Shown here in pieces: positions 1 to 7,994 of a DNA stretch of 22,583 nt. Numbering within the stretch: position 1 is the first letter of the stretch; each line of letters begins with the position of its first letter. The translations under genes and the position numbers were made by a program. The stretch is from positions 1 through 22,583 of the IMG/VR virus record IMGVR_UViG_2724679236_000013; one strand, written 5' to 3'. The notes under the pieces are model-generated. The model did no database searches, was not told where the DNA came from, and saw only the letters and a list, made by a program, of their open reading frames with translations. Source of the stretch: a virus (taxonomy: Duplodnaviria; Heunggongvirae; Uroviricota; Caudoviricetes).

Positions 1-2181
1 TTATGCTACAACTCCACCATTAACCAAAAGTCTCTCGGCTCCATTACTGCTTCCTGCCCCACCATTTGAGAACCTGTTTGTTACACCGTAGTAGAAATTG
101 GGATTCACAAAAGCATTGGCAGAACCTGTTGTTCTTGCAAGCCTGAAGGCATTTTTTGTGCCAATAAATGTTATCCCTCCCCATGGCAGTTGAATTGTTG
201 TGTCAACATAAGTCTGACACCACACACCATATGCAAATCCCTTAATTACACCACCAATAATAATTGCATTTGAAGGTTCTCCTGCAACATAAACTGCGGA
301 GTTAGCCGTTGAGTCTGTCAGGGTTCCTTTCGCATTCAGATTATTCAGGGTACTTGTTGCCGCCGCACCTGATGCAAAAACGACACCATATCCATCCGTG
401 GCTCTTTCAACAACAATGTTATTGAGGATGTGATCACCAAAGACTGTCGCTCCAGATACTGGAGAGAGAAATACACTATTACCCGCAGCCCTGACAGTCC
501 TGTGGCCATTAACAACAACACCATTAGCTTCACCAGTAATGTATATTCCTGAACCTTTGCTATCAAAATCTACATTATTAATCATTGTTAACTTTGAATT
601 ACCCACTCTATCCTGAATACGATAAGCCCCTGAACCAGATTGACCAAATCCTGAAACAATATTGTTTGAGATTACATCTCCATCAACAATGTCTCCAATA
701 AGTATACCTCCAGAGATATTTGAAGAATCTGTTTTGATGCCAACATTATAGATAATATTGGCATCAATAATTGATGGTGGATACGAGACAGAGCCGTCTG
801 CCCCGCCTGAACGATAAATGCCAGTCCAGTTAGTATCACGAATGATATTATGTGCAATCAATATTGAACCGCCGTAAGTTTGATGGCTATTATAGCCAAA
901 CTCAATACCGTGCCTTTTATTGATTAGCGATGAATCCTTCGCAGTGAAATCAGAGTTGTAGGTGAGAATTGTGTTATTTGTAATAATAATATCCCTGTCA
1001 GCAGACAAGGCGTTCACATTTATTCCCTGGCTGGCATCTGACAGTAGCAAATTACCTATAATTTTACCTCCCTTTGATGCCCCTGGAGTACCAGTGTAAG
1101 CGACTATATCACCTCCAGTGGCAAATGTACTGGTTAGGTCCCAATCATTAAGCCAGCATAAATTATCAATAGCTTCCCACTGCCTGCAGCTCTGGAAGAA
1201 TATCCCTGCATTTTTCCATCCGATGCTTCTGCAGCGCCTAACAAATGCCTGCTTAAGTCCAACCATTCTAAATCCATTTGCAGTTTCAGCAGCCGTAGAT
1301 GGTGTCGCACTAACGTTTTTAACTTCAAGCCCTTCCAATTGAAAGATTGTTTGGTCATTTTCAGGCGCCATTACACCGTTAATTTCTGGCGCGGTATATT
1401 CAACTATCATACCGTCGGCAGTTACCCATGGATTAACGCCAGTAAACAAAAGGCCGACTGATGACCTGAATACGCCAGGACTACCAATACAACGATTTTG
1501 AGTGGCCCACCTTGAAAGACCAGTTGCACTGTCAAAGGTATCGTCATCAGGTATAGCACCACATTCTGGCGGAGTGAGAGCATCTTTCTTAACGTTAATC
1601 CATCTCCCCTGACCACTAACTGATGATGGCATGATGACTGAGAATCCATCATGGGCCTCTGTGCTAGTTGCATTCCATCTGAAACAACCACCACCAACAC
1701 CTCTTCCAGCATGAAAGCTTTTTACCGACACTCTCTCCCCGTTATCAATCAGGGACAATTGGGAGAAGGATTGCAAGTCCGCTACCGATTCAAACTCCCC
1801 AATCATCGACATGCCATATGGAGCTTCCAAGTCATGTTTTAGCGCGGCAGGATCATACTTCAACACATTAGGAAAATAGAACTGCTGAGCACCATACGCA
1901 TCATAAACAGCCATAGAATGGCCATGTACAGTAACGAATTTGGCAATCTGTCCGTTATATACCGGATATCCAGCAGCGTTAATGATGATTGGTTGCGAAA
2001 CAGGAATGTGAGAGCCGTCTTCGTTCTCCACATAAACCTGAATCTGGTTTTCAGGATTTACCGGGTCTGTGTCAATTTTACCGATATAAATTTTGCCATT
2101 GGCTACGGCTTTAAAAGAACGCGCCATAGTGAAGAGTTGCGAAGGCATCGATACAATCACATTGGCTGTAATGTCTGTCAT
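1..2181 (-). CDS. Tailspike protein (P22 gp9 family), 726 aa: conserved N-terminal head-binding domain, divergent C-terminal receptor-binding domain
   Basis: The first ~110 aa ([13 protein letters not shown]...[23 protein letters not shown]...VLKYDP) closely match the P22 tailspike head-binding domain as I remember it; the remainder is Gly/Asn/Ile-rich as expected for a beta-helix. Stop codon TAA lies at positions 1-3. Last gene of the late block, as in P22. Confidence 0.9.
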
Positions 2182-2239: not shown

Positions 2240-2263
2240 AAAAAAACCCAGCCGAAGCTGGGT
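2240..2263 (-). terminator. Rho-independent terminator downstream of ant
   Basis: Perfect 7-bp stem ACCCAGC / GCTGGGT with a 4-nt loop; on the minus strand it is followed by a run of seven T. Lies between the ant stop (2304) and the tailspike start (2181). Confidence 0.6.
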
Positions 2264-2303
2264 CGTTGCGTTGGTTATTGACCTACACTTTTCGTGCAGG
2301 TAG

Positions 2304-3206
2304 TTAAAGTTTAATTGAGTGGCACGCTCTATCACGTATCGCTGCGAATGAAGCTATCTCTTTAAGTGCCCAGCTTTGCTCAGCCATTAAATGGCGAAGT
2401 GCTTTTAGCTCGGCTCTTACTGCTGAAACGTCATACCCCGCTTTTGTCAGAATATCGATTAGTTTATACGCCGGACTGCATTCAACGAGTGCGCTGCGGT
2501 CAAGAGCAACAGTATCACCGCATTGCTGCCTGATAATGGCGTAAGGTGCATTTTCAGCAAACCATGAAATCGGGAAGTTAATATCCAGTTTCGGCGCTGG
2601 TAACTCTTCTTGTTTGCCGATGAACTCACCTTCAAGCACTACCCTGTGGATGTACTCTACGGCTTGCGGTATCTGAGATGCATCAAGCTCTTCAATACTT
2701 TCCACATTGAAACGCTGATGAATCATTGCATAAGCTTCTGGGTACATTAGATGCTTTTTGCTGACTAGCATATTTACAGCATCACGAAGCGGAGTCCTGT
2801 CATCAACAGATGTTTTCTTACGTGCATTTTCTGCCTTTCCCTTTGTCCAGTAGTCATGCAGCACAGTAAAGCATTCTTCCTGGTACTGAATCAGTTTATC
2901 GCGGATGTCAGCACGAACTTTCTCAGGGTTGATGCTGAACAGCCATCCATTTAACTTCTTCAAAGGAAGGCAGAGTAACTTACGAAGCTTCCCATCAGCG
3001 GCAACCATGTTCATATGAACACAGTTGAATTTGCTAATCTGCTTCATGAGTTTTGTTTGCTGCGTTGACCAGCTCATTCCAAGGTTTTCAACGATTGGCT
3101 TCATCGCAACATATGCAACTCCGGCAGCCATGGCGGTGATAATTTGCTGACCGTTGAATGGTACGTAAGAGGTGTTCACTGCTTCTAAAATTGCTATACT
3201 ATTCAT
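2304..3206 (-). CDS. ant: Antirepressor Ant (immI region), 300 aa
   Basis: Lies directly downstream of the Arc-like gene and upstream of the tailspike, the P22 immI arrangement. Start chosen at the internal Met ([10 protein letters not shown]...), which is preceded by GGAG; this gives 300 aa, the size I recall for P22 Ant. The 322-aa extension in the ORF track is probably not translated. Confidence 0.75.
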
Positions 3207-3438
3207 GTTGGTTTTTCTCCACGGATTTACTGACAACCGAAGCCCTGACTGTTCCCGCAGTTGGGGCTTCACTGTTTTGATTTCTTTGCCGCATCAAGCA
3301 TCACTTCTGAAAACGTGCGCTTGCCACTGAATACTCTTTCTCTTCTCAATTTTTCGTTCGTGCCAAATGATTCGCCATGAACAAAATTTGGTCTTAAAAT
3401 GGTAATCGCAATCTCTTTGACTACTGCATCCAAGCGAA

Positions 3439-3579: not shown

Positions 3580-3683
3580 TGCATCCTCCGTTGTATGTGG
3601 TACGCATACATAGTATTTAGGTACGCATTGATAGTCAATAGATACCTACATATCCTGTGGTAAAAATTATTCAGGATGCGCCG
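3580..3683. promoter_or_regulatory. Divergent promoter/operator region between arc-ant and the Mnt-like genes
   Basis: A 104-bp AT-rich spacer between divergent starts. GGTACGCAT occurs at 3599-3607 and 3620-3628 (21-bp spacing), and an inverted repeat TAGGTA (3618-3623) / TACCTA (3643-3648) is present. Position corresponds to P22 Pant/Pmnt with the Arc and Mnt operators. Confidence 0.45.
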
Positions 3684-3941
3684 ATGTCTGATCGTAAGTA
3701 CAAAAACCCTCAAGTGAATCTGAGGCTTCCTGTAGAGATAAAGGAACGTCTTATTGAACTGGCTGAGGCTAATTCTCGTTCATTAAATGCTGAGATGGTC
3801 GCAGCACTTGAAGCATGGACCGAAAAAAACAAACACATTCAAGCACTAGATCTTGCAACTATAGCATCACGATTGATAGATCTTGAGCATGATGTTGAGA
3901 AGTTGAAATGCATGTATGGCAACGATGAAAACAAAGGTTAG
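3684..3941 (+). CDS. Mnt-like ribbon-helix-helix repressor, 85 aa
   Basis: The N-terminus (NLRLPVEIKERLIELAEANSRSLNAEMVAAL) has the Arc/Mnt RHH signature and resembles P22 Mnt as I remember it. ATG at 3684 is preceded by AGGA; the ORF track's start at 3657 is a GTG without an obvious ribosome-binding site. Divergent from arc-ant, as mnt is in P22. Confidence 0.6.
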   Translation: MSDRKYKNPQVNLRLPVEIKERLIELAEANSRSLNAEMVAALEAWTEKNKHIQALDLATIASRLIDLEHDVEKLKCMYGNDENKG

Positions 3942-4182
3942 AGACATAGCCCCATATAGCGTAAGAATGCCAGATAGCCTCAAGCGCGACCTGACCATAA
4001 GAGCATCGAAAAACGGACGCTCATTAAATTCAGAAATAGTTATGATCTTGCAAGCCGCTATTGATGAAGAAAAATCACCAAGATCGATAGAAGGTTTTGC
4101 TCAACAAGAATCTGAAAAATTTAGGGAGGCTCTTCTTAAGACTCTCAGCAGCATGTACGGAGAAGATAAAAAACCCACCTGA
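3916..4182 (+). CDS. Second Mnt/Arc-like RHH protein (paralog of the upstream gene), 88 aa
   Basis: RHH-like N-terminus (VRMPDSLKRDLTIRASKNGRSLNSEIVMILQAA). Its C-terminus ends ...MYGEDKKPT, against ...MYGNDENKG in the upstream protein. Start is uncertain (ATG at 3916 or 3925, neither with a strong ribosome-binding site); it overlaps the upstream stop, suggesting translational coupling. Confidence 0.5.
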   Translation: MATMKTKVRDIAPYSVRMPDSLKRDLTIRASKNGRSLNSEIVMILQAAIDEEKSPRSIEGFAQQESEKFREALLKTLSSMYGEDKKPT

Positions 4183-4192
4183 CGGTGGGTTT
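4168..4192. terminator. Bidirectional rho-independent terminator between convergent genes
   Basis: AAAAAA-CCCACC-tgac-GGTGGG-TTT: a 6-bp GC-rich stem flanked by an A-run and a T-run. It overlaps the stop of the + strand RHH gene and sits directly beside the stop of the minus-strand toxin-like gene (4191). Confidence 0.55.
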
Positions 4193-4640
4193 AGTCAAAC
4201 ATAGTGTTTCTAAAGTCTCTCGCATACCCTGCTAACACTCTCATTCTATTATGATTGTTAGCAGACATGTGAGCTACAGGATGAAAAAGAGCAATCAATG
4301 AATACCTGTTCTCATCAAAAAGATTTTGTGCATAAACGAGAGCGGTATTGGATGTTTTATGCCACTGCAACTTTTGCGGTGTGCTGATATCTGTGCCATT
4401 TTTTATTGGCTCAAATTTATTTTCACCAATTGCTAAATGAAGGTGCATAAGGCCTGCATCTTCAATATCAGGAGGTCGATGATAAGAGGTGTCTCTGCCA
4501 AAATAGCTGGGCAACGTTCCCGTAGACTTGTAGATGATAAAATCATCTACAAGTGTTTGTTTTAAATCAGGAAACTCAACAAAAACCGGGGAGAAAAAAT
4601 AGTCAAAACTATCCTGATTATATTCCACGGTTACTTGCAT
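4191..4640 (-). CDS. Putative YafO-family toxin-like protein, 149 aa
   Basis: Motifs YFGRD...HLHLA...ALVYAQNLFDE...LIALFHP...NHNRM resemble E. coli YafO (ribosome-dependent mRNA interferase) as I recall it; not verified by search. GAGG ribosome-binding site; start lies 8 nt after the upstream gene's stop. AT-rich cargo DNA. Confidence 0.5.
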   Translation of the reverse strand: MQVTVEYNQDSFDYFFSPVFVEFPDLKQTLVDDFIIYKSTGTLPSYFGRDTSYHRPPDIEDAGLMHLHLAIGENKFEPIKNGTDISTPQKLQWHKTSNTALVYAQNLFDENRYSLIALFHPVAHMSANNHNRMRVLAGYARDFRNTMFD

Positions 4641-4648
4641 GTTTTACC

Positions 4649-5215
4649 TCAGTGGAAGTTACCAGAGTGAAACACACGAGTCCCGTGCTCAGCAAGCGCA
4701 CGCAAACCAGCCATATCTACGGAACTATCAAAAACAACCGGAACACATGAGCGTTGTTTAATAAGACTATTCAGGTTGGTTACGGCAGATCTGGCATCAG
4801 CAACAACGATATAGATATCTCTTGCGATCTCTTTAAAATCAGCAGAAGCTTCTTTGAATACCGATTTCATTGCCCCTTCAAGTCCTCTCAATTGATGCTC
4901 TATCAATCGAGACTTTTCTGGTTCAATGATAGACAACACATTGTCTACATTCTCATCGGTAGCGTTTGCAAGAACACGATAAGCGTATTTCAGCATTCGA
5001 GACAATTCTTTAATCGAAGACACCGCCTCATGAAGCTCATCATTAGCCCGTTCACTGCTGAATGAGGATTGATGGTAAGCGTGCTGAACGTTATCAGTAA
5101 CAACCACCTCACAACTGAACGCAGAAGCTTGCTGTAATAGCAAACCTATTGCGACTCCAGCTTTGGCAGCGTTCAAGCTAAACATTTCATCAATCCTATT
5201 AGTCTCATTGCTCAT
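4649..5215 (-). CDS. Hypothetical protein, 188 aa, translationally coupled upstream partner of the YafO-like ORF (candidate non-canonical antitoxin or regulator)
   Basis: Strong ribosome-binding site AAGGAGG 5 nt upstream of the ATG at 5215 (the ORF track's longer form starts at a TTG). No resemblance to YafN/DinJ/RelB or RHH antitoxins that I can recognise; no transmembrane segment evident. Confidence 0.6.
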   Translation of the reverse strand: MSNETNRIDEMFSLNAAKAGVAIGLLLQQASAFSCEVVVTDNVQHAYHQSSFSSERANDELHEAVSSIKELSRMLKYAYRVLANATDENVDNVLSIIEPEKSRLIEHQLRGLEGAMKSVFKEASADFKEIARDIYIVVADARSAVTNLNSLIKQRSCVPVVFDSSVDMAGLRALAEHGTRVFHSGNFH

Positions 5216-5390
5216 ACAAACCTCCTTCTTATCGGAGATTATCAATAGCTATGCATCCATTGAATACACGCTATGCGCAATAAGTTTACGTCACGTGATA
5301 TCATTATGCAACCACCGTTCTATCACCGACTAACTTTACTCCCACTCCTATACATCATCTGGTATCCTGCGCAAAACTAAGGAGGTTGGT
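5216..5390. promoter_or_regulatory. Divergent intergenic control region of the cargo island
   Basis: A 175-bp AT-rich spacer between divergent starts (5215 minus, 5391 plus). It contains overlapping 8-bp palindromes TCACGTGA (5291-5298) and TGATATCA (5296-5303), candidate operator sites. Confidence 0.4.
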
Positions 5391-5837: not shown

Positions 5838-7994
5838 TTACTCCTGTGCCATTCCGCTTAGCGATGCCACAATTCCAGCTCTTGCTAAACGCTGGAACTC
5901 TTCGTTTCCTAGTGCCTCGCGTATTGCCTTTACGGCGGCCTTATTTGCCATAAATCTGCGTTCCGCCGCCGCTAATGCACCATCACTTGCCCCAACCTTA
6001 ACTGCCTTTGTTGCCTCTTGAACAGCCTTTTCAATAGCGTAACGACCACTGCGGGATGCAGCTAACTTTTCTATCGTCCCTTTAGCTATAGATCCAGAAA
6101 CAGCCCCTACAACACCGCCAACAATCCCTCCACCAGTAGTACCAACAATAGCCCCTGATGTTGAATTGCCTATTGCATTGAGAACTGTCATGACAGCTTT
6201 TGGCAGTCCTTGCTCAAGAGAGTTAATTGCCGGTATAGAGCGCCCCGTATGCTCTACATATCGCAGTGGTCTGGTTGCTGCTCTGGCAAGGTCGCTGTAT
6301 GCCCTAGCAATCTTACCCATTTCTGGCGAGTGCCTACTAATGGCAGTAATGTTCTGCGGCGTAAGGATCGACGCTATATGGAATACGCCAGCAGACTCTG
6401 ATTTACCGCCACGCACCCCTTGCGATACCGCATCTTGTAATATTGATGCAATTGCAGGAGATCGCTCAGACTCTGGCAGCGCGCCAATAATCTGATGAAA
6501 CTTTCCTGTCCCACTTTTTGATGAATTTTGCAAGGCTTTAATACCATCAGTGACTAACTGATCAGTTGCAAGGTTTCTAAACGCTGCTTCAGCCTGTTCT
6601 TGTGCTGTAAATCTTGCTTTTGACAGATCATTAGCTTTTTGCCAGTCATCAAGAAAACCGCCATTTTGAGCCATTATGCGCATATCTTCCGTTGCTGCAT
6701 CACGAAGCTCCGCCATGCGCCTTGCCGTATTTGCCTCACCAGACCTTATATACTTCTGCTCAGCGTCAGCAAGTTTACTTCGCCATGCCTTCATGGCATC
6801 AAACGTGATTCCTTTTTTACCAGTTTTAGCATAAGCAGATGCAAATTGTTTCATCTCAGGAGTTAGCGGCATGCCAGCCAAAATATCACCCTGAATTGTA
6901 GCGTTCAGGTTTGACATTCTGGCCTTTGCGTCAGGCATCGTGGAGCGGACGCTATCCCATGCTGCCTTTTCTGAGTTCTTCATTTTATCAATACTTGCTA
7001 AAACCCTTTGTTTTATGGCTGCACTTTTTTCTGATGCAGATCCAGCCTCAGCACCAAGTTCATCAAGTGCTGAGTGGAATTTCGACTGTATTTCACTAAA
7101 AGCCCTAGTATGTGCATCCTGAACAATTCCTGGTTCGGATGCCAATATCCCTTCGGCTTGTGCAATTCCACGACTTCCAGATCGCATTCCTGGTGTTAAT
7201 GCGTTTATATCAATTCCAGCAGACTCAGCCGCTTTTGCTACATCTTCGGACACATTAGCGGCCTGACTGGCAATTGACTGACGCCCAGCACCTGACTTTG
7301 CCATCCTGGAAACATCATTAGCAGAATTCAGTGCTGCACCACCAAGAGCCTGTGAAACCCTTGGCGCAATAACGCGCCCGACACCTGAAAGAACGCCTTG
7401 AGCACCAATATTGATACCACCGTTAACGGCAGCATTTTGTGCAAAATCACCCTCCTGATTTGCAGCATCAGCAAGAGAACCGGCAATCATGTTTCCTGCG
7501 GAACCGATGTCTCCTGCGAGCTTTGCTGGCGCTCCAGCAGCTTTTGCTGCTGTGCCAATTGGCAGGAGATACCCACCAATTGTTTCACCGGCTTGCGCGT
7601 AAGGGTCTGTCGGTCGATCGACTGGACGATAGACATCATCCAAAACCTTGGGGCCACCAAGCCCCTGGCTGATTGCATTAATCAGACTTGCGCCACCCTG
7701 CAATACGTCAAATGGTATGTTTACCAGACCACGACCAGCCTGTTCTGCAATTTGCCCTGCACTTTGACCACCTGTGAGCCAATCACCAGCTTGTTGCATC
7801 AATGATGGTTCTTCTTTCTGCTGCTGAGGTGGAGGGTATGCTGCATAAAACTGATCTCTTGCTTCAGCCCATTTGTCACCAGCCTTAGGGGCAACAACCT
7901 CATCAAAATATTGCGCTTGAGCCTGTGCTTTCTGTTCTTCAGTTAACGCCTGATACTGTGGAGAAGCGATAACATCTTTCCATGCTTTAGCCAT
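5838..7994 (-). CDS. Ejection (injection) protein, P22 gp16 family, 718 aa
   Basis: Synteny: last of the gp7/gp20/gp16 trio before the immunity/cargo region. Ala/Gly/Gln-rich composition typical of ejection proteins. Its start overlaps the gp20 stop (TAATG). Confidence 0.7.

Follow-up and report, generated by a model that had tools for sequence, protein, structure and literature searches.

Within the 22,583 nucleotides (nt) of the IMG/VR virus record IMGVR_UViG_2724679236_000013 (hereafter the window, which covers 22.5 kb of the phage), two consecutive and overlapping open reading frames (ORFs) on the plus strand, ORF1 (mntA) and ORF2 (mntB), are predicted to encode Mnt-type repressors with a ribbon-helix-helix (RHH) domain. 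The nucleotide sequence of the window matches CUS-3, vB_EcoP-611R6, phiv205-1, and Salmonella P22-like phages, and to judge by its sequence the window derives from a phage or prophage that is P22-like (Lederbergvirus-type). ORF1 extends from an ATG to a TAG codon and encodes 85 amino acids (aa). ORF2 ends with TGA and encodes 85 aa if it starts at the ATG at position 3925, or 88 aa if it starts at the ATG at position 3916. The two ORFs overlap by 17 nt, or by 26 nt with the start at 3916, and both coordinates and overlap are as described in the initial annotation. Both ORFs face arc, a 57-aa ORF, and ant, which are all located on the minus strand, as well as the sar RNA on the plus strand (Table 1), and therefore the immI region is complete and of the P22 type, again in agreement with the initial annotation. 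ORF1 and the group of arc, the small ORF, and ant are directly divergent, and ORF2 follows ORF1 as the second gene in the same direction of transcription. In vB_EcoP-611R6 and in an O157:H7 lambdoid prophage, the ORF2-type gene itself holds the divergent position opposite arc. Like the predicted products of ORF1 and ORF2, Mnt of P22 is a protein of about 83–85 aa (PDB 1mnt and 1qey) with an RHH domain and a C-terminal helix, and its gene, too, is divergent from arc and ant in the presence of sar, but P22 possesses one mnt gene whereas there are two in the window.

Table 1. Genes, RNA, and sequence elements of the immI region, in positions of the window
Feature	Start	End	Strand	Remarks
ORF1 (mntA)	3684	3941	+	PF03869 (E = 3e-10), phrog_795; predicted RHH repressor in the Mnt position, with C-terminal heptad helix
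ORF2 (mntB)	3925	4182	+	PF03869 (E = 8e-9), phrog_2685; predicted second Mnt-type repressor
Overlap and mosaic junction	3925	3945	+	Native ORF1 tail GGCAACGATGAA continues into ORF2-derived AAGGTTAGAGAC from about 3931–3934
arc-mnt intergenic control region	3580	3683		104 bp; divergent promoter-like sites and candidate operators
Near-palindrome TAGGTACGCATTGA-TAG-TCAATAGATACCTA	3618	3648		31 bp; spans both -35 hexamers; candidate operator
Inverted repeat TGTATG-TGGTACG-CATACA	3592	3610		First unit of a 21-bp direct repeat (GGTACGCAT...), just 3' of the Pant-like -10 hexamer
arc	3439	3579	-	46-aa RHH protein, PF03869 (E = 2.9e-9); first gene of the Pant operon
57-aa ORF between arc and ant	3269	3442	-	phrog_17642 (E = 1e-43)
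sar antisense RNA	3207	3273	+	Rfam RF00262, 87.7 bits (gathering score 43), E = 2e-18
ant (antirepressor gene)	2304	3206	-	PF10547 P22_AR_N (E = 3e-45)
G+C-rich hairpin AAACCCACC-TGAC-GGTGGGTTT	4171	4192		Encloses the ORF2 stop codon; scored on the minus strand, T-run TTTTTTAT

Fold and class of the two predicted proteins

The initial annotation had described RHH-like N-termini in both ORFs. Both predicted proteins matched the Arc-like DNA-binding domain PF03869 (40.1 bits for ORF1 and 35.7 bits for ORF2, with a gathering cutoff of 20.4). AlphaFold2 models, built on 56 homologues in the case of ORF1 and on 38 in the case of ORF2, reached a mean predicted local distance difference test (pLDDT) score of 78.7 and 79.8, respectively, and averages above 85 in the RHH helices of both. 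In each model an extended N-terminus is followed by three helices, which comprise residues 17–29, 34–48, and 57–79 of ORF1 and residues 17–29, 34–50, and 55–79 of ORF2. When the models were compared with the PDB by Foldseek, the best matches for both were chains of the Arc repressor (1par and 1bdv, 1par being the best for ORF1), with probabilities of 0.97–1.00 and TM-scores normalized to the target of 0.7–0.8. The corresponding E-values of these small models are weak (0.03–0.3), and the fold assignment rests mainly on the Pfam and PDB sequence profiles. Judged from these profiles and models, both proteins are of the Mnt class, composed of an RHH domain and a C-terminal helix; the RHH-like N-termini are thus confirmed, and the fold was predicted for ORF2 as well as for ORF1.

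The two proteins are 30% identical over 71 residues (BLASTP, E = 8e-8), and a profile-profile comparison of their families gave a probability of 98% over 72 columns. They also share the C-terminal MYG(N/E)D motif that had been noticed before (ORF1 ends with ...KCMYGNDENKG and ORF2 with ...SSMYGEDKKPT), which turned out to belong to a longer 'LKxMYGKD' tail that occurs among Mnt proteins of the ORF1 type and the ORF2 type and in some of the P22 type. The ORF2 family is related to P22 Mnt along almost the entire protein, as its profile aligned with 1mnt over residues 5–75 (E = 1e-12), ORF2 itself is 33% identical to P22 Mnt over 80 columns (BLASTP, residues 6–78), and the predicted C-terminal helix of ORF2 can be aligned with P22 Mnt through residue 75–79. 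The profile of the ORF1 family, in contrast, aligned with Arc and Mnt in the RHH part only, and the C-terminal half of ORF1 is a predicted heptad-patterned helix for which no sequence match to the C-terminal tetramerization domain of Mnt was detected. The likeness of ORF1 to P22 Mnt is thus confined to the RHH part, and its beta-strand sequence PQVNLRL is closer to PQFNLRW of P22 Arc.

The residues of the predicted DNA-reading beta-strand are KNPQVNLRLP in ORF1 and DIAPYSVRMP in ORF2. In the ORF1 family, the N-terminal arm R-YK-PQ-NLRL, which includes the beta-strand, is invariant across the 56 homologues. In the alignment of the ORF2 family, residues 1–16 occur in two versions of the N-terminal beta-strand, VRDIAPYSVRMP and KGVSISPTTVRIP, on near-identical protein bodies, suggesting that operator specificity may have been swapped by recombination in the 5' end of the gene. 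Both PHROGs to which the two ORFs belong carry the label 'partition protein ATPase', which is also found on the RefSeq mnt genes of SEN22, ST64T, ST104, SPN9CC, and Emek, and which is very likely a propagated misannotation of RHH repressors of 80 aa.

Origin of the gene pair

ORF1 and ORF2 are not each other's closest relatives, as each is 94–100% identical to single-copy genes elsewhere as compared to 30% to its neighbor. ORF1 is 94% identical to the product of the first of two mnt genes of CUS-3 (ECRS218_0005) and 86% identical to that of the sole mnt of Salmonella phage SEN22. From KVRD to the stop codon, ORF2 is identical to the product of the single mnt of vB_EcoP-611R6 and of the O157:H7 prophage, and as it differs from these only in the N-terminal junction codons it is not a frameshifted remnant. 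In these two loci the ORF2-type gene is the sole mnt and has a promoter region of its own, which contains four CACNGTGATA repeats, and the arc allele opposite it is not that of the window. The two ORFs were assigned to different PHROGs, and an ORF1-type gene is the sole mnt in 62 of 80 IMG/VR loci, as it is in SEN22; an ORF2-type gene is the sole mnt in 24 of 25, as it is in 611R6 and O157. Among the 518 E. coli genomes with a match to the region there are likewise many, including many O157:H7 strains, whose single mnt is of the ORF2 type.

When complete E. coli genomes were compared with the window by megablast, the similarity to genomes carrying only ORF1 was found to end at about position 3931–3944 and the similarity to genomes carrying only ORF2 to begin at about position 3931–3934; E. 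coli LI60C3 is the only complete genome whose match spans both. ORF1 genes have the conserved tail ...LK-x-MYG-K/N-D/G-E-K, beyond which the DNA varies by locus, and the native start region of ORF2-type genes reads GTATGACGAAGGTTAGAGAC. The ATG at 3925 is provided by GAT-GAA of the ORF1 tail, read in another frame, and in this way MKTKVRD replaces the native MTKVRD. From these comparisons it is evident, at the level of sequence, that the pair arose when mnt genes recombined at their conserved 3' boundary, which encodes 'LKxMYGKD', and that this event cost ORF2 its own promoter, operators, and start codon and left its reading frame complete. The tandem duplication with subsequent divergence that was initially proposed does not agree with these data.

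Similar exchanges are apparent in related loci. In LI60C3, where the start called by the Prokaryotic Genome Annotation Pipeline (PGAP) is homologous to that of ORF2, the ORF2 gene differs in its tail and in the gene that follows it, the switch occurring at the conserved MYG boundary. The second locus with the pair, IMG/VR contig 2648501336_000006 (L006), has only an immI core of about 1.5 kb in common with the window and differs in both flanks; its ORF2 gene differs from that of the window by four synonymous and one conservative codon change. ORF2 is thereby found intact and at full length in three different flanking contexts. In CUS-3-type loci, the same junction is followed by about 15 nt of ORF2 5' sequence (GACGAAAGTTAGAGA), then by the P22 mnt leader ACTAACTTGGAGTGATGGC and a P22-type mnt. 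Since these 15 nt of the ORF2 5' end were kept, the CUS-3 arrangement probably descended from a window-like ORF1-ORF2 arrangement or from a shared ancestor. The region is known as the 'ant moron', which is characterized by general variability and very high genetic flux (Villafane et al. 2008, PMC2629481).

Control region and candidate operators

By consensus match only, two divergent promoter-like sites are located between arc and ORF1, a Pmnt-like site (-35 TTGATA at 3628–3633, -10 TATCCT at 3651–3656) and a Pant-like site (-35 TTGACT at 3638–3633, -10 TACTAT at 3615–3610), and their -35 boxes overlap. The P22 operators Omnt and Oarc, as read from P22 DNA, are absent here. The near-palindrome that spans the two -35 hexamers, whose central ATTGATAGTCAAT is invariant across genera, is Oarc-like by its position, and by analogy with P22 it may be assigned to Arc or to Mnt. 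The inverted repeat just 3' of the Pant-like -10 hexamer is also conserved across genera and is a candidate Mnt operator by position, since Omnt of P22 sits at the start of Pant.

The control region as a whole was conserved in every locus examined in which an ORF1-type gene comes first, namely in CUS-3, SEN22, LI60C3, and divergent IMG/VR loci, and also in Yersinia, Arsenophonus, Xenorhabdus, and Photorhabdus, despite identities of ORF1 of only 50–75% in these genera. Within it, the segment corresponding to 3592–3660 of the window (GTATGTGGTACGCATACATAGTATTTAGGTACGYATTGATAGTCAATAG...) is near-invariant from E. coli to Photorhabdus, with flanking genes down to 50–60% identity, and in some genera the ORF1-type control region can be read as three GGTACGYA units with a spacing of 21 bp. 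These data point to ORF1 as the cognate repressor of the local Pant.

Single-gene loci of the ORF2 type have an unrelated spacer between arc and mnt, in which the four copies of CACNGTGATA lie within about 70 bp, and the ORF2-family gene of Xenorhabdus is accompanied by a related element, TGATATCAATGTGAT. In the window, sites of the CACNGTGATA type occurred as four single matches with one mismatch, as compared to 3.75 expected by chance, and the composite site did not occur. In L006 and in the whole LI60C3 prophage, a search for the ORF2-type operator likewise gave only single one-mismatch matches at chance level, and LI60C3 contained no exact copy and no comparable cluster. A similar situation was found in CUS-3, where P22 Omnt (AGGTCCACCGTGGACCT) had no match with up to three mismatches in the entire genome though the second Mnt has the N-terminus of P22 Mnt. 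Conversely, where an ORF1-type gene comes second (L009, L047, and Xenorhabdus), the operator region has been lost. From these sequence comparisons a rule emerges according to which the first mnt matches the local operators and downstream mnt copies appear to be orphans. Of the two possibilities raised initially, that of two operator specificities is plausible, as the DNA-reading beta-strands differ and the operator regions found with each family elsewhere are unrelated, whereas control of the local antirepressor by both proteins is not borne out, there being no ORF2-type operator in cis, and nothing in the analysis spoke for the heteromeric repressor.

Stacked mnt genes in other phages and prophages

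The contrast with the single mnt of P22 had suggested that the locus was unusual, which was an overstatement, as CUS-3 has been annotated with two mnt genes (ECRS218_0005 and ECRS218_0006) since its deposition. The CUS-3-type stack, an ORF1-type gene followed by a P22-type gene, is present in 45 of 5426 complete E. coli genomes at a coverage of at least 80%, and carriers include NU14, IHE3034, APEC O18, and UM146, in which PGAP labels the products as two Arc-family proteins. CUS-3 and its relatives (UTI89, NU14, IHE3034, and APEC O18) resemble the window in the first gene, in the control region, and in the 3' junction of ORF1, and they too carry a heterologous second Mnt-type gene directly downstream on the same strand. 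They differ in that the second gene is of the P22 type and is preceded by a 23-nt spacer containing the P22 mnt leader with a Shine-Dalgarno sequence, whereas in the window a 611R6/O157-type allele overlaps ORF1 by 17 nt. The exact pair of ORF1 and ORF2 was found in the window, in L006, and in LI60C3, and a search for the exact junction in the GTDB representative genomes yielded no genome with the pair. The stacked arrangement is therefore one that is already annotated in CUS-3-like prophages, and the window is a rare combination of alleles.

Other combinations were also detected. ORF1 is followed by other Mnt-like genes in L070, L073/75, L079, and Arsenophonus L116, and in L047 and E. coli MS 196-1 an ORF2-like gene precedes ORF1. 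The contig IMGVR_UViG_2541047931_000005 (L009) contains a triple of ORF2-like, ORF1-type, and P22-type genes at positions 2244–3036, and its arc allele has the beta-strand RDIAPLGIRIP, the same as the first Mnt of the triple; no complete E. coli genome contained this triple at a coverage of at least 80%. The reverse order was observed in Xenorhabdus yunnanensis and Xenorhabdus sp. TCT-1 (L126 and L127, positions 1745–2234), where an ORF2-family mnt is separated by 8 nt from an ORF1-family mnt. Stacks thus recur in several genera, with varied combinations of genes and with either order represented; the genes are on the same strand and tightly spaced in all of them, the downstream copies examined were intact, and the extra copies look maintained. 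Literature searches did not find a paper on stacked mnt genes. L006 contains, in addition, a further Mnt-like ORF (21–281, plus strand; 65.6 bits to P22-type Mnt) about 2.2 kb away beyond ant, with a hairpin of its own at the 3' side.

Neighboring genes and other features

An arc protein identical to that of the window is encoded in LI60C3, where PGAP labels it as an Arc family DNA-binding protein. An intact and unannotated arc, near-identical to that of the window, is present in the CUS-3 record at about 6759–6899, inside 'bsq2' (L001, 3245–3385, minus strand). The conserved 57-aa ORF overlaps the stop codon of arc by 4 nt and has no P22 gene at an equivalent place; in the LI60C3 and vB_EcoP-611R6 records it is labelled as a hypothetical protein. 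The sar RNA sits opposite the ribosome-binding region of ant and has a terminator-like hairpin at 3239–3270, and the start of ant was placed at the ATG at 3206 because of the position of sar and the annotation of a 903-nt ant in LI60C3 and 611R6.

The hairpin that encloses the stop codon of ORF2 likely marks the end of the mnt operon and might also serve as terminator for the convergent minus-strand operon, and vB_EcoP-611R6 has the same hairpin 3' of its single ORF2-type gene. The convergent operon contains a YafO-family toxin-like gene (4191–4640, minus strand; PF13957, E = 3e-22), which matched the NCBIfam YafO equivalog below its cutoff, and upstream of it a 198-aa ORF (4649–5245, minus strand) with no Pfam match, assigned to phrog_8416. 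By sequence, the two look like a two-gene cargo, perhaps a toxin-antitoxin or defence system, inside the 'ant moron'.

Discussion

We lean, with modest confidence, towards an mnt operon of two genes, with ORF1 as the repressor of the local Pant and ORF2 as a spare specificity that acts in trans. ORF1 would be the maintenance repressor which, as Mnt does in P22, shuts Pant and with it arc, the small ORF, and ant in the lysogen. As a consensus scan found no promoter-like site inside ORF1, ORF2 seems to have no promoter of its own and would be co-transcribed from Pmnt. ORF2 would have no target in its own prophage; its targets, in trans, would be the Pant operators of other phages with an ORF2-type immI, whether incoming or co-resident. 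Rival phages silenced in this way would make no antirepressor that could inactivate the main repressor of the resident prophage, and stacked mnt genes would thus widen the secondary immunity of a prophage. A prophage would gain by silencing foreign ant genes since Ant of P22 inactivates the repressors of the heterologous phages L, lambda, and 21 (Susskind and Botstein 1975, as cited in PMC3121763). In phages L, ST64T, and ST104, an mnt has been retained where both arc and ant are missing (PMC8022706, PMC2629481), and by analogy this orphan mnt would fit the same logic, as in these prophages, too, a Mnt-type gene is present without a cognate antirepressor promoter; in their case, however, there is no other mnt and the orphan possesses a promoter of its own, whereas in the window it is located behind a cognate mnt.

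Several observations weigh against a trans-acting role of ORF2. No Shine-Dalgarno sequence was recognizable before the ATG at 3925 or the ATG at 3916, and for this reason translation of ORF2 by coupling to ORF1 has to be assumed. Divergence among the ORF2 copies is too small for a meaningful ratio of nonsynonymous to synonymous substitution rates (dN/dS) or for a proof of purifying selection. The attribution of the CACNGTGATA cluster to the ORF2-type Mnt, and not to its partner Arc, is drawn from their co-occurrence, and with a window of 22.5 kb the statement that ORF2 has no target in cis rests in part on the related LI60C3 prophage. The rarity of the pair (one of 5426 complete E. coli genomes and one IMG/VR contig) fits a recent accident equally well. 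Furthermore, mnt transcripts were undetected in Kapi1 lysogens (PMC12922286), and therefore expression of the Mnt side cannot be assumed in P22-like prophages of E. coli.

The main rival, which we consider possible but rather unlikely, is a neutral relic, in which ORF2 was left over when a phage with an ORF2-type immI gained the module of arc, operator, and ORF1, or the reverse, and in which it has no role, whether expressed or not, and will decay. Such a relic would be expected from a junction that is a plain mosaic breakpoint in a region of very high flux (PMC2629481), and it agrees with the rarity of the pair, with an ORF2 devoid of Shine-Dalgarno sequence and promoter, with the low divergence just mentioned, and with the CUS-3-type loci, in which most of ORF2 was later deleted and replaced, about 15 nt being left. 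However, a start codon was kept at the junction and ORF2 is of full length in three contexts. Stacks also arose repeatedly, with different partners, in both orders, and with up to three genes in a row in several genera, the downstream copies examined being intact, and the CUS-3-type stack persists in the 45 complete E. coli genomes.

We regard it as very improbable that ORF1 and ORF2 jointly control the local Pant, either by both binding the control region of the window or as mixed tetramers formed through their C-terminal helices. Both proteins have a predicted C-terminal helix and a similar LKxMYG tail, and translation from one mRNA might give roughly equimolar amounts, but the ORF2-type operator motif is absent from the control region, and in ORF1-only phages ORF1 appears to suffice because the control region there is unchanged. 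The C-terminal halves, moreover, are poorly conserved between the two families, that of ORF2 being alignable to P22 Mnt and that of ORF1 not, and an obligate pair is argued against because the second partner is exchangeable, being of the P22 type in CUS-3 and of other types elsewhere. The data therefore lend no support to a repressor of the local Pant that is heteromeric or dual.

An in situ tandem duplication of one mnt followed by divergence is hardly credible, because the adjacency, common strand, equal length and architecture, and homology along the whole length of the two genes, which it would explain, are outweighed by their identities to single-copy genes, their separate PHROGs, the many single-gene loci of either type, and a breakpoint in the overlap, at the very place where the similarity to ORF1-only and to ORF2-only genomes stops. 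RHH proteins are frequent among antitoxins, and the YafO-family gene ends 9 nt from the stop codon of ORF2 with the hairpin common to both; a role of ORF2 as antitoxin or regulator of this gene was nevertheless rejected and retains almost no likelihood, as the genes are convergent on opposite strands and their linkage is not conserved (the ORF2-type genes of 611R6, O157, LI60C3, and L006 are not beside this YafO gene), the toxin gene is preceded by a partner ORF of its own, and the homology of ORF2 to P22 Mnt extends along the entire protein.

Returning to ORF2 as a specificity that acts in trans, we tentatively put forward the wider proposal, which we do not hold to be the probable outcome, that the stacking of mnt genes has been selected for as an 'anti-antirepressor' immunity array. 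A prophage, of P22-like or other enterobacterial phages, would collect heterologous specificities behind its own mnt and silence the ant promoters of several rival immI types in trans, whereby its resident repressor would be protected from foreign antirepressors, and the conserved LKxMYGKD-coding 3' end of mnt would be the recombination joint at which new specificities are appended.

The immI region of P22 is a textbook circuit, but what antirepressor control is good for in nature has yet to be explained. Should the second gene be no more than a recombination scar, we would have a case of ordinary mosaicism in the 'ant moron'. If, however, extra Mnt genes lack a target in their own genome and are nevertheless kept intact in many prophages, they point to a phage-versus-phage function, the blocking of the antirepressors of rivals, and such a role would account for orphan mnt genes like the one in phage L as well. 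Taken by itself, the locus shows ordinary mosaicism of phages, and the rule of an orphan downstream Mnt offers a testable lead on the purpose of immI.

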